Below the pieces are notes generated by a model. That model ran no database searches, was not told where the DNA came from, and was given only the letters and a program-made list of their open reading frames with translations. The translations under genes were made by a program, and so were the position numbers. Below are positions 31,448 through 34,175 of a DNA stretch of 50,292 nt, piece by piece; the stretch's first letter is position 1, and each line of letters begins with the position of its first letter. Source of the DNA: a virus (lineage: Duplodnaviria > Caudoviricetes); the IMG/VR virus record IMGVR_UViG_3300005253_000344, positions 1 through 50,292 of that record; one strand, 5' to 3'.

Positions 31448-31525
31448 ATGAACAGACTATACAACAACATAACAGCGGTCGATATGCTCTGGCTCGTGGT
31501 CTTGGCATATCTGGCCTTGTGCTAA
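31448..31525 (+). CDS. Early hydrophobic peptide 1 (25 aa, apparently leaderless)
   Basis: MNRLYNNITAVDMLWLVVLAYLALC; ATG 7 nt after the -10 box; paralogs at 32805, 33648 and 34104. Confidence 0.7.
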   Translation: MNRLYNNITAVDMLWLVVLAYLALC

Positions 31526-31572
31526 GGGATAATAACCGTTCGTCCGTTACACGGGACGTGGAGTACCTTAAA

Positions 31573-31695
31573 ATGAAGACAATGAAACGCAATAGACTCA
31601 GACAGTTAGTATCGTGGGGGTATATCACACAACCAGAAGCGAATCAGCTATGGCGTGAGTATCTCCGAATGTTTTATCACCCAAAAAGAAAGTGA
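31573..31695 (+). CDS. 40-aa early protein (RLRQLVxWxYITQ family)
   Basis: GGAG RBS; paralogous sequence at 33128-33277. Confidence 0.65.
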   Translation: MKTMKRNRLRQLVSWGYITQPEANQLWREYLRMFYHPKRK

Positions 31696-31705
31696 GGATA
31701 AGAAA

Positions 31706-31855
31706 ATGGCAGTAACAATTATGACTAAAGGAAAACTTGACACTAAAAAACACTATTGTCAACAGTGTAAAAAAGAAATGGGCTTCGAGTATTTCCTCGG
31801 TGCTGTATGCGGAGCTTGTTGTCGCAAGAATCACAAACGAGTAGCAGGAAGATAA
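31706..31855 (+). CDS. Small zinc-finger protein
   Basis: GTGAGG RBS; CQQC..CGACC. Confidence 0.7.
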   Translation: MAVTIMTKGKLDTKKHYCQQCKKEMGFEYFLGAVCGACCRKNHKRVAGR

Positions 31856-31881
31856 TCACCCCAACACTCCACTTCACCAAT

Positions 31882-31921
31882 AGCCGACTGGTTACCCCAA
31901 TTATCAGTCGGCTGTCATTTT
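31882..31921 (+). terminator. Terminator-like hairpin
   Basis: AGCCGACTGGT..ATCAGTCGGCT then GTCATTTT. Confidence 0.6.
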
Positions 31922-32049
31922 GTCCAGACCAGATAACCACGTCCGATTATCCTTAACACGGAACAGCTCTAAAATCGCTGTGTCCTTGTGGGCGTGAATC
32001 AGGCGTGTCGGGGCTGATTGTCTTAGTCTCAGTATCATTTCTTGAAAAT

Positions 32050-32510
32050 ATATACCTTTAGTAGTACACCTTTAGGTATATACCTTTAGTGGCAGTCTAG
32101 GTAGATTGTAGATGTACCTAGACACAAAACTCCATTATCAGGCCAATAATAGCTATGTGTCTAGGATGGTCTAGGTAGATTAGGCATACCTAGACGGCAA
32201 TAAACTCTTGCCTAGTATAGACTTACAAGCGAAAACACTGAATGTGTCTAGGTACACGAGATAAAACTCTTATATACATATATTACTATCTACTATCTAC
32301 TATACCCTATTGGTCTATACTCTTATATATTACTAAGGAAGTTTTAACACACTACCTAGACACAATAGACCAAAACAACCATAACACCAGTATCATAAAC
32401 AGTTTATCCGTGTCTAGGTACAAACAAGTTACCTAGACCATCATAGACACAACAGCCATATTGAACCAATACCGCAGATGCTGTGTCTAGGATGGTCTAG
32501 GTAGAATTTT
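32050..32510. repeat. Iteron array around an AT-rich core; candidate replication origin
   Basis: About 11 GTCTAGG/CCTAGAC copies in both orientations, three ACCTTTAG copies, AT-rich core at ~32265-32335. Confidence 0.75.
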
Positions 32511-32531
32511 CACCGATTGTCAAGATTTAAT

Positions 32532-32560
32532 TTGCATTGTCAACCAAAATAGTGTATACT
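32532..32560 (+). promoter_or_regulatory. Early sigma70 promoter P2
   Basis: TTGCAT-17-TATACT. Confidence 0.7.
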
Positions 32561-32595
32561 TTACATAGTTAAATCAAACGCTATTTGACAAATAA

Positions 32596-32808
32596 ATGGG
32601 AGAGATTAAGATGATAACAAAAAGCATTATTGCAGTTAAATACACAACAGACGGAGTATATCTATCAGCTAAAACAGACAAGGGTGATTATGGTCAACAT
32701 TACAATACATTTGACAAAACAAAATCGTCTTTTATGCCGGACACTGATACAGCAATAGAACGGTTTGTGGCGTTTTATAATCAGTTTGAAAGGGGGACAG
32801 TACAATGA
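32596..32808 (+). CDS. Early hypothetical protein
   Basis: ORF after P2; true start probably 32611 (GGGAG RBS). Confidence 0.6.
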   Translation: MGEIKMITKSIIAVKYTTDGVYLSAKTDKGDYGQHYNTFDKTKSSFMPDTDTAIERFVAFYNQFERGTVQ

Positions 32809-32888
32809 TAAGACGAATATGTGATAGTATCGGGTTTGAGTATAGTATCGTAGTGTTAATCGTTTGGGCTTATCTGAGTTTATGTTAA
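32805..32888 (+). CDS. Early hydrophobic peptide 2 (27 aa)
   Basis: MIRRICDSIGFEYSIVVLIVWAYLSLC; AGGGGG RBS; ATGA overlap. Confidence 0.7.
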   Translation: MIRRICDSIGFEYSIVVLIVWAYLSLC

Positions 32889-32899
32889 GGAGATATGAT

Positions 32900-33073
32900 A
32901 TGGAAAGCATAACAATCAATCAATCGCATTTAACGTCTGAGTGTTGGCTTGTGCAATTCTGGGGCTTTAAGCAATGCGAAACTTGTGAAGCCAAAGATAC
33001 GCCTGATTGTGGTGGACAGAAAATCAGACAATCAGGCAAAAATGAAAATGGATTTTCAATACCAGTAAAATAA
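32900..33073 (+). CDS. Small Cys-containing early protein
   Basis: AAGGAG RBS; ECW..CETC..DCGG. Confidence 0.7.
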   Translation: MESITINQSHLTSECWLVQFWGFKQCETCEAKDTPDCGGQKIRQSGKNENGFSIPVK

Positions 33074-33127
33074 CCAGACCAGCAGCCAGTCCGGTGCAAG
33101 GCCGGACACTGGTTTTATGAGAAAACA

Positions 33128-33277
33128 GTGGGACACGAGCAGGACTGTTGTCCGGCGTGTTGTAAACGAATAGACAGACTGCGACAACTTGTGGTCTGGC
33201 AATACATAACACAACTACAGGCCAACAATATGTATCGTGAGTATTTGAGAATGTTCAAGAGAGTCAATAGAGTTTAA
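33128..33277 (+). CDS. Second RLRQLVxWxYITQ-family peptide (start uncertain, possibly decayed)
   Basis: KRIDRLRQLVVWQYITQLQANNMYREYLRMF matches the 31573 product. Confidence 0.5.
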   Translation: MGHEQDCCPACCKRIDRLRQLVVWQYITQLQANNMYREYLRMFKRVNRV

Positions 33278-33280
33278 TTT

Positions 33281-33592
33281 ATGAGAGGATATGATATGGT
33301 AAATCAAGAAATGACAAGCGAGCGAGAAAAACAAATAGATTGTAGCTGTCCAGCTTGTGGATGTTCAGACTTTGACGGTTATTGTAGCGACTGCAAGCAC
33401 ACAGCAGAACAAGGGAAAAACTTTTACACTGATGAGCCAGTGGTGCTGAAAAAAGGGATAACAACAGCACAACAAGAAGAACTAAATGAATTGTTGGCCG
33501 AAGATATTCTGGAACGATATAACAATTCTGAGTATTGGGAACCTGATTTAATTACAGAGTTTTATCACGATAATAATATCAAACAAGATTAA
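33281..33592 (+). CDS. Early zinc-finger protein
   Basis: CPACGC..YCSDC; acidic C-terminus. Confidence 0.7.
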   Translation: MRGYDMVNQEMTSEREKQIDCSCPACGCSDFDGYCSDCKHTAEQGKNFYTDEPVVLKKGITTAQQEELNELLAEDILERYNNSEYWEPDLITEFYHDNNIKQD

Positions 33593-33647
33593 ACTTCGCA
33601 ACCGATGGCCGTCAAGGATAGCCGGACGGATAATACGGCCAAAGGTT

Positions 33648-33725
33648 ATGCAGTTTATCTTTAACAATATATCGGCAAGTGATATGCTATTGCTCGTAGT
33701 GATGGTATATGCTTGCCTATGCTGA
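33648..33725 (+). CDS. Early hydrophobic peptide 3 (25 aa)
   Basis: MQFIFNNISASDMLLLVVMVYACLC; gap-free alignment with peptide 1. Confidence 0.7.
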   Translation: MQFIFNNISASDMLLLVVMVYACLC

Positions 33726-33740
33726 AAGTGAGGTTGTGAT

Positions 33741-33908
33741 ATGCAGTTAAATGAAAACGAAAAAATTGAAAGCTGGGTTATTGTAGTGAGAACATCAGAC
33801 GGTAGAGAATTGAGCTTTACTGAATTAGGTCTTGAAATTTATTATAATATTTCAAAACCTATTGACGAAACACTCGAAGCTCTGTATCCCTGCGAATGGG
33901 TAGGCTAA
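33741..33908 (+). CDS. 55-aa early hypothetical protein (not in ORF track)
   Basis: GTGAGGT RBS; MQLNENEKIESWVIVV... Confidence 0.65.
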   Translation: MQLNENEKIESWVIVVRTSDGRELSFTELGLEIYYNISKPIDETLEALYPCEWVG

Positions 33909-33930
33909 TCATACACACACCACACACCAC

Positions 33931-33969
33931 AAGCCGGGCGGTACTCCCAAGCTGTCCGGCTTTGTTTTT
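33931..33969 (+). terminator. Intrinsic terminator
   Basis: AAGCCGGGCGG..CTGTCCGGCTT followed by TGTTTTT. Confidence 0.75.
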
Positions 33970-34067
33970 GTGGGTGATATTGGTAGCGTTGGCAAGCGTT
34001 AGTCCATTACAGAGGACGTGAGGGCTTCGATATTTTCAGATTTATTGGATTTTAGGTGATTTTGGGC

Positions 34068-34096
34068 TTGACACGATATATTGGTTATGGTATAAT
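34068..34096 (+). promoter_or_regulatory. Consensus sigma70 promoter P3 (extended -10)
   Basis: TTGACA-17-TATAAT with TG at -15/-14. Confidence 0.9.
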
Positions 34097-34103
34097 AGCT
34101 ATT

Positions 34104-34175
34104 ATGAAGATATGGTATTTAACAGTATTAGTTTACATTACGTTAATTTTCACTGGTTTTAATCGGAGGATGTAA
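34104..34175 (+). CDS. Early hydrophobic peptide 4 (23 aa, apparently leaderless)
   Basis: MKIWYLTVLVYITLIFTGFNRRM; ATG 8 nt after the -10 box. Confidence 0.55.
   Translation: MKIWYLTVLVYITLIFTGFNRRM

Follow-up and report, generated by a model that had tools for sequence, protein, structure and literature searches.

Tiny, often unannotated hydrophobic peptides from the early regions of phages are an already known kind of gene product, and several described systems resemble in part what is found in the DNA considered here, the record IMGVR_UViG_3300005253_000344 of IMG/VR (Duplodnaviria; Caudoviricetes). The 50,292 nt of this record, which has a completeness rating of 100%, were analysed as a whole and are referred to below as the window. 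At the opening of its early arm lie four very short open reading frames (ORFs), here called pep1 to pep4 in order of position, and two of these, pep1 and pep3, are clear members of a family of hydrophobic micro-proteins that is not filed in the collections searched. AcrZ, MgtS, KdpF and SidA are small proteins of the inner membrane that consist of a single helix and modulate larger membrane proteins. The family peptides are like them in having fewer than 50 residues, one predicted helix and a hydrophobic core, but their hydrophobic stretch of ~13 residues is shorter, and they are phage-borne, early and without a Pfam or NCBIfam match. The type I toxins Ibs, ShoB and TisB, with 19–30 residues, share with the family its length and a hydrophobic C-terminal end; the family genes differ in that no antisense RNA gene was seen with them, that they match no toxin family, and that they lie in forward-reading early operons. 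Enterococcal pheromone-inhibitor precursors of the iAD1/iCF10 type are plasmid-encoded, have 21–23 residues, are encoded next to their receptor or regulator gene and are cut by a membrane protease to short hydrophobic signalling peptides. The family likewise consists of tiny signal-peptide-like ORFs with nothing behind, but most members have a single basic residue at the N-terminal end and a conserved polar block, and no cognate regulator was recognised nearby.

The layout of these genes has described counterparts as well. The cI mRNA of phage lambda is leaderless. In mycobacteria, leaderless small ORFs were found at the 5′ ends of transcripts (Shell et al. 2015, PMC4633059), and the features held in common with the window are an ATG at the predicted first base, the lack of a Shine-Dalgarno sequence and the presence of many tiny ORFs at 5′ ends; the starts in the window, in contrast, are predicted from promoter spacing alone. 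T4-type phages carry promoter/stem-loop (PeSL) cassettes (Arbiol et al. 2010, PMC2839356). The likeness lies in strong sigma-70-type early promoters that are reused before small, non-essential and variable genes. In the same way, the promoter-plus-ORF of pep4 fronts one gene in the window and another in the related records G002 and G003, and stem-loops end the first and third units of the window, although no fixed unit of promoter plus stem-loop, as in those cassettes, was seen. The T4-type early ORFs have no sequence likeness to the window peptides, whose ATG stands at the predicted transcript start and which belong to another phage clade.

The peptide family and the evidence that it is coding

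The four ORFs, for which the coordinates and translations (Table 1) were all verified, fall within the first 2.7 kb of a long plus-strand early arm that opens at 31448. The initial annotation had taken them for one family on the strength of the motif L-x-V-[LMW]-[AV]-Y-x-x-L, and this motif is indeed common to all four, occurring four times in the six-frame translation of the window and nowhere else. In 300 windows simulated with a first-order Markov model it appeared 0.037 times on average and once at most, and the ending [AV]Y..LC-stop, present three times in the window, appeared 0.087 times; because the motif had been picked post hoc from the same data, these figures are not clean probabilities. 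The LC-stop ending reported for three of the peptides is that of pep1, pep2 and pep3. A family of four was nevertheless not borne out. A profile of 28 peptides, from which pep2 was left out, was scored on 2201 six-frame segments and separated two clear members, pep1 and pep3, from a weak pep2 (E-values for these three in Table 1) and an unrelated pep4 (E 1.5). The statement that the DNA is far more diverged than the peptides also had to be given up, since pep1 and pep3 are 62% identical in DNA (48/78) and 56% identical in protein (14/25). Six of the 14 shared residues are encoded by differing codons, and the DNA similarity between the two is restricted to 48 nt within the ORF.

Relatives were recovered by several routes. 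Loci were fetched, independently of the peptides, via a 142-aa and a Cpn10-like neighbour protein, and a profile of three window peptides then found intact ORFs in two of them, one in L004 (E 1e-10) and two in L006. A further 15 loci, representing 11 contig groups, were fetched via the 40-aa RLRQLV-type protein encoded downstream of pep1 (see below); an intact peptide lies upstream in eight of the groups and a broken one in another, and two have none, among them L096, where no peptide was seen in the 241 nt of upstream sequence examined. Pattern searches added more. All seven viral stretches matched by a full-length degenerate pattern carry members. A pattern confined to the last 14 codons matched 51 metagenome stretches, of which 31 also have the N-terminal L-F-N-N-I-[TS]..D, a block outside the pattern (E ≤2.2e-6), and the remaining 20, which share little beyond the pattern's own demands, were not counted. 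Six stretches from prokaryote genome contigs, which this pattern also matched, were rejected as members, as they lack the N-terminal motif and reach an E-value of 1.5e-4 at best; one of them (L079) is set between ordinary chromosomal genes. With an N-terminal pattern that left the last seven codons free, 14 viral stretches were obtained: 11 intact ORFs, two duplicates of the broken copy and one unrelated sequence. Of the 11 intact ORFs, ten terminate at the codon usual for the family, with Cys (6), Met (3) or Ser (1) as the last residue, and the remaining one, in L107, extends 14 residues past it. The terminal Cys is thus common yet not fixed, being Met, Leu or Ser in members found without requiring it, and its apparent invariance arose because earlier search patterns had imposed it.

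In total, ~39 distinct peptides were collected from at least 11 IMG/VR data-set numbers, with the consensus MNRLFNNIT..DMLxLVVLAYxxLC-stop. The window holds three copies, record G010 two, G001, G007 and G008 one each, and G006 a single broken one, while the fragments G002, G003 and G009 have none. The family is carried by a clade of uncultured marine-sediment phages with genomes of ~50 kb. The initial annotation had not recognised the family, and the peptides match no known family in Pfam, NCBIfam, PHROGs or a collection of ~15 billion predicted proteins: none of the seven peptides looked up in that collection was present, the search of Pfam with seven peptides gave a single match at chance level (INCENP_N, E 0.066), that of NCBIfam with six gave nothing at E-values up to 1, and PHROGs had no match to the family peptides. 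A 34-residue variant had no usable match in the ESM Atlas, and tblastn of pep1 against GenBank phages returned nothing. Word searches of the literature yielded no description of such a family, the literature not being searchable by sequence and catalogues of small ORFs possibly containing the family unnamed.

The manner in which these sequences vary points to a translated product. In the F-N-N-I segment, which was free of any search pattern, codon entropy over 34 distinct DNA versions was 0–0.73 at positions 1 and 2 and 1.0–1.39 at position 3. Among 11 genes from the synteny-fetched loci, the proportion of synonymous differences (pS) was 0.63 and that of nonsynonymous differences (pN) 0.28, with pS exceeding pN in 54 of 55 pairs; in the two shifted sense frames this was so in 20/55 and 10/55 pairs. 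A point to be set against the sense frame is that its mirror antisense frame, with which it shares third positions, also scored 54/55. This outcome is inevitable in a frame that shares those positions, so that pS/pN alone cannot pick the strand, and the sense strand was chosen by the start codons and by the kind of replacements. Amino acid changes are milder when read in the sense frame (mean BLOSUM62 of −0.03, against −0.93 in the mirror antisense frame). In antisense, most sequences have a stop directly bordering the core, and a start codon appears only among the final residues of the frame. In the sense frame, ATG, length and stop are all conserved, and every neighbouring gene shares its strand.

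Judged by this comparison of sequences, the family frame is protein-coding and under purifying selection, and pep1 and pep3 qualify as real, conserved genes under such selection. Across the aligned loci, the family gene is seen to keep its start, length and stop while its neighbours change, and to have undergone duplication in certain genomes and loss from others. The anticipated conservation in relatives held for the family in so far as intact ORFs and a synonymous bias were found; one broken copy and one clean deletion did not conform to it. A pep1 orthologue with many synonymous changes stands at the identical location in L004, and peptides that differ from pep3 in one residue are present in L060 and L071. 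For pep2, no orthologue was found in any locus collected, and it aligns to the family profile via its final 10 residues alone; the segments most like it, out of 16,688, belong to the family, and its placement is that of a gene, its ATG overlapping the stop of the preceding gene (ATGA) and its own stop (TAAGGAG) forming the ribosome site of the next (ATG 32900). It is probably a family gene as well. Genes this short escape gene callers, and here a frame of 25 codons could be recognised as real and selected by comparison alone. The gene moves between contexts and occurs widely within a single clade of sediment phages.

Promoters, transcript starts and genomic context

The ORFs sit in what are predicted to be the units of the early arm that the host polymerase transcribes first, in keeping with the earliest expression that had been proposed for them. 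It had also been noticed that two of the ORFs begin close behind a sigma-70 −10 box. The gap is 6 nt for pep1, with the A of its ATG as the seventh base past the box, and 7 nt for pep4; neither has a Shine-Dalgarno sequence, the upstream bases being occupied by the promoter. The layout recurs in relatives, and the pep1-type promoter with an ATG at 6 nt was seen in L004, L006, L009, L014/L023, L025, L031, L072 and G001. The usual spacing from the −10 box to the start of transcription by sigma-70 polymerase is well established, and transcripts from these promoters should, by that spacing, begin at the A of the ATG.

Promoters of the form TTGnnn-16..18-TATA[AC]T were then surveyed over all collected loci, giving 115 distinct sites, among which related promoters are not independent. 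An ATG was found at offset 6 in 20 of them, at offset 7 in six, at the remaining eight offsets of the range 0–9 in 14 together, and at none of these in 75. An ATG thus stands 6–7 nt past the −10 box at 26 of the 115 sites, compared with an estimate of ~1.8 per offset by chance (115/64). The enrichment at offset 6 fits leaderless mRNAs, and, from these promoter sequences, leaderless early transcripts seem to be a recurrent feature of the clade. The ORFs opened in this manner are family peptides, the pep4 type, a 26-residue ORF in L041, small proteins of full size and mini-ORFs of 4–9 codons, and in two relatives the promoter of pep1 opens other frames instead, a 61-residue ORF in L006 and a 17-residue ORF in G001. 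In the window, three promoters (31413, 34068 and 36686) have an ATG 6–7 nt behind. The ORF of L041, which begins MRMAIEQ and has its ATG at promoter offset 7, is unrelated to the family and very hydrophobic, and there may be several kinds of tiny hydrophobic first ORFs in these phages. Should the leaderless starts be confirmed, they would give insight into translation in the host and into how these phages obtain their first products.

The surroundings of the family genes were compared in 34 distinct combinations of member and upstream sequence. Seven members lie 6 nt past TTGCAy-17-TATACT, 12 follow a Shine-Dalgarno sequence, three follow a hairpin, and the other 12 have a weak or unrecognised site. 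What follows downstream varies: most commonly it is the gene of the RLRQLV-type protein, and unrelated genes are also found behind the same peptide. Most members end 10–30 nt ahead of the next start, frequently as TAAGGAG, and a terminator-like hairpin with a T run was detected within 90 nt past the stop in only one of the 34.

The RLRQLV-type proteins form a family of their own, of 37–51 residues, basic, with the consensus K-R-N-R-L-R-Q-L-V-x-W-G-Y-I-T-Q-x-x-A-N-Q-L-W-R-x-Y-L-R-L-F; it comprises two paralogues in the window and 18 more sequences in the loci, and has no Pfam or PHROGs match. The predicted complex of a peptide with a 42-residue downstream protein scored 0.02 against a mark of 0.32, which gives no verdict. 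Between the peptide stop and the next gene, pep1 (31541–31562) and its orthologues have a conserved element CGTCCA...ACGTGAG(A/G)(A/G)G, which G002 and G003 retain despite the deletion of the peptide. As an RNA structure it is unsupported, the consensus fold having −0.9 kcal/mol and one covarying pair, with three sequences that break one pair. The hairpin that precedes three members is a conserved 50-nt element (L045 2074–2125 on the minus strand; L051 ~1915–1967 and L063 ~75–126 on the plus strand) with a T-loop-like inner stem, GCCGG-TTCAACT-CCGGC. It stops 2 nt ahead of the peptide ATG, with no Shine-Dalgarno sequence, and folds with −21.4 kcal/mol (z −2.4). ARAGORN finds no tRNA in any of the three loci; the hairpin could be a processing site that generates a leaderless mRNA.

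The remaining ORF, pep4, is a separate element. A pattern search of viral contigs found it, with its promoter, in G002 and G003 only. These differ from pep4 by 17 bases (5, 3 and 9 by codon position), which amount to six synonymous and six conservative codon changes. The final codons of pep4 contain the GGAGG of the next gene, and its stop lies 1 nt ahead of ATG 34177; length, stop and the 1-nt gap are kept in G002 and G003, yet the downstream gene differs. No notable RNA fold was predicted (z 0.23). From its arrangement, pep4 would be a leaderless mini-ORF coupled (stop-1 nt-ATG) to whichever gene follows the promoter cassette, and it may also yield a peptide. The comparison covers just two sequences.

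Shape of the peptides and how they may act

The family peptides have 23–36 residues. A polar and weakly basic N-terminal end, M-N-R/K-L-F-N-N-I-T/S-x-x-D, is followed by a hydrophobic stretch of ~13 residues, M-L-x-L-V-V-L-A-Y-x-x-L, that runs up to the stop, the last residue being usually Cys, and the Kyte-Doolittle mean of the last 13 residues is 2.6–2.9. AlphaFold2, given an alignment of 29 rows, predicted a single helix from residue 3 to 33 of 34, with a mean predicted local distance difference test (pLDDT) score of 80. A stretch of ~13 residues is long enough for the core of a signal peptide or for a monotopic anchor. The reading to which we lean, with modest confidence, is that these are trans-acting, single-helix, hydrophobic early micro-proteins that probably act at the membrane, a place of action for which the odds are a little better than even. 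The family genes would lie in the units that the host RNA polymerase transcribes first, and where the ATG directly follows TTGCAy-17-TATACT, the transcript would start at the A of the ATG and its leaderless translation would give the first product of the infection. That product, one α-helix, would partition into or onto the host cytoplasmic membrane and act in trans on a component of it, e.g., in phage exclusion, takeover or counter-defence. An accessory peptide of this takeover or exclusion type is suggested by the selection on amino acids, the mobility between contexts, the duplication and loss, and the first place in early units. That the gene is autonomous, and not a leader, is indicated by the diverse downstream genes, the clean deletion in G002 and G003 and the rarity of terminator-like hairpins behind the stop. 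The peptides are short enough to be synthesised or expressed, which makes tests of localisation, toxicity and exclusion cheap.

Several observations weigh against this proposal. The hydrophobic stretch is short for a span of the bilayer and nearer to the length of a signal-peptide core, some members have an Arg inside it (DMLRLAVLAY...), and the helical periodicity of conservation is not significant (p 0.30 for the whole peptide, 0.087 for the C-terminal 13 residues). In record G006 (L084/L085) the family copy is disrupted by a frameshift and a TGA, and in G002 and G003 the promoter and the next gene are retained while the ATG has become AGT and the remaining ORF is cleanly deleted, so that the family gene is dispensable; G009 has no family copy in the part examined. 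Most of the distinct members, moreover, came from patterns that imposed part of the conservation. As to expression, no RNA sequencing runs containing the region are listed, the runs that contain it being three DNA runs, all of one study.

Among the alternatives, an action in cis was given some weight, though it is considered unlikely: a mini-ORF at the 5′ end or upstream would load ribosomes and hand them on, either through termination-reinitiation or because the RNA is opened, with the peptide as a by-product. The spacing of pep4, whose stop 1 nt ahead of the next ATG and internal GGAGG are kept before a different gene in G002 and G003, would suit such a role, as would the many promoters of the clade that open with mini-ORFs of 4–9 codons (MKVR, MKGR, MAIVPN, MNGGE) and the short distance, often with TAAGGAG, between most family members and the next start. 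It would not explain why ~25 codons are conserved as amino acids with their third positions free, why the same peptide stands before unrelated genes in leaderless and Shine-Dalgarno-led positions alike, or how promoter and next gene persist without the ORF in G002 and G003. Leader peptides of attenuators that sense the supply of Leu or Val, for which the Leu- and Val-rich core might speak, are extremely improbable: the required hairpin with a T run is all but missing behind the stops, the consensus fold there is negligible, and conservation at the amino acid level extends to the polar F-N-N-I and to the Tyr, again with free third positions. Chance ORFs with a chance motif deserve practically no credence. 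Short hydrophobic ORFs are frequent in DNA of moderate G+C content, but the simulations, the conservation in relatives and the selection signal tell against chance, and on this comparative evidence it is refuted for pep1 and pep3; the case for pep2 lies in its family likeness and gene-like placement.

The short core lends itself to another interpretation, i.e., that the peptides mimic signal peptides, either as decoys that occupy host export or lipoprotein processing or as precursors of short hydrophobic signalling peptides. The basic N-terminal end and ~13-residue core fit signal-peptide cores better than membrane spans, the frequent end L-[AS]-L-C resembles a lipobox, and one variant has a strongly basic N-terminal extension, MAILRQKQKRIK. 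The lipobox rule, however, wants Gly, Ala or Ser before the last residue, where Leu stands in 29 of 29 aligned peptides; the final Cys gives way to Met, Leu or Ser in samples that did not force it; the stop directly after the Cys leaves no mature protein to follow; between the N-terminal end and the core lies a conserved polar block that includes an acidic residue; and scans of the neighbours with Pfam and PHROGs recognised no receptor or regulator gene. Mimicry is distinctly unlikely on these grounds, and little faith is placed in its more specific form, in which peptides made within the first seconds and usually carrying an uncleavable, lipobox-like L-x-L-C end would jam or hijack export or the lipoprotein enzymes, or be trimmed to intercellular signals, the early transcripts with an AUG start serving to make the peptides ahead of all else. 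Membrane-damaging toxins like those of type I (Ibs, ShoB, TisB), which would depolarise or kill the host or have a toxin-antitoxin or abortive role, are unlikely too. Size and hydrophobicity lie within the range of such toxins, but there is no match in Pfam or NCBIfam, collections that include type I toxin families, and no antisense gene was seen to be conserved; the mirror frame on that strand lacks a start before its final residues. Promoter-like sites on the minus strand are weak (9–10 of 12 matches), the region having 27 sites against 17.1 ± 4.1 in shuffles. A toxin made as the first lytic product would, in addition, be expected to damage the phage's own energy supply.

The early region and its surroundings

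The features of the early region are collected in Table 1. The stem-loop behind the first unit is probably its terminator. No ATG follows the promoter at 32532, and the second early transcript should for this reason have a leader.

Table 1. Positions of the peptides and of the main neighbouring features in the early region of the window
Feature	Position	Strand	Description
Early promoter P1	31413..31441	+	TTGCAC (31413–31418), 17 nt, TGt-extended TATACT (31436–31441)
pep1	31448..31525	+	25 aa; clear family member, probably leaderless; profile E 2.8e-15
RLRQLV..ITQ..AN..YLR-type basic protein	31573..31695	+	40 aa; no Pfam or PHROGs match
Stem-loop (13 bp) followed by GUCAUUUUGU	31880..31915	+	−19.9 kcal/mol, z −4.3; 0/200 shuffles equally stable
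Second early promoter	32532..32560	+	TTGCAT-17-TATACT, then ttacatAGT
pep2	32805..32888	+	27 aa; weak orphan member; profile E 0.0045, rank 3/2201 segments
Second RLRQLV-type paralogue	33128..33277	+	49 aa; 62% identical to the product of 31573–31692
pep3	33648..33725	+	25 aa; clear family member; weak ribosome site aaaggtt-ATG; profile E 1.8e-15
Terminator-like hairpin	33931..33962	+	12 pairs and T run; ends the unit containing pep3
Consensus promoter	34068..34096	+	TTGACA-17-TGg-TATAAT; 12/12 consensus matches; kept in G002 and G003
pep4	34104..34175	+	23 aa; outside the family; profile E 1.5–6.9
Third such promoter	36686..36736	+	TTGACA-17-TATAAT, 7 nt, ATG AAA GTG AGG TGA (MKVR-stop), then gene 36741

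Relatives with annotation were of little help. The 4-kb region had no DNA match among GenBank phages, and the DNA polymerase of the window is just 27% identical to the nearest ones, those of the Pseudomonas phages phiR18 and KPP25, so that no annotated relative is informative. The small proteins of the early region matched nothing in PHROGs or Pfam, scans of viral contigs with the 184-aa and 65-aa neighbour proteins found no relatives, and an Rfam scan of 30800–36000 gave no match. The structural genes lie on the minus strand and span 5779–31065, with a portal-like protein, a trypsin-like protease and a Cpn10-like protein among their products.

Nine exact copies of GTCTAGGTA, each inverted relative to the one before, lie at 32095–32503, behind the first terminator and ahead of the second early promoter. 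They are the only copies in the window and resemble an operator or origin-like array of paired binding sites; the matching position of G001 carries another repeat, of the kind tactatcatatactatca. Further along, in the early/middle arm, an N-terminal domain of a dATP/dGTP diphosphohydrolase (PF18909, E 2.5e-23) is encoded at 39365–40093, a small two-part helix-turn-helix protein, both parts being like sigma-70 region 4, at 38912–39310, and a metallophosphoesterase at 40898–41593; no gene like that for adenylosuccinate synthetase was seen among the window ORFs scanned. In G001, the divergent region between the structural and the early arms contains ~22 GT repeats (L018, ~29757–29800 of that record).

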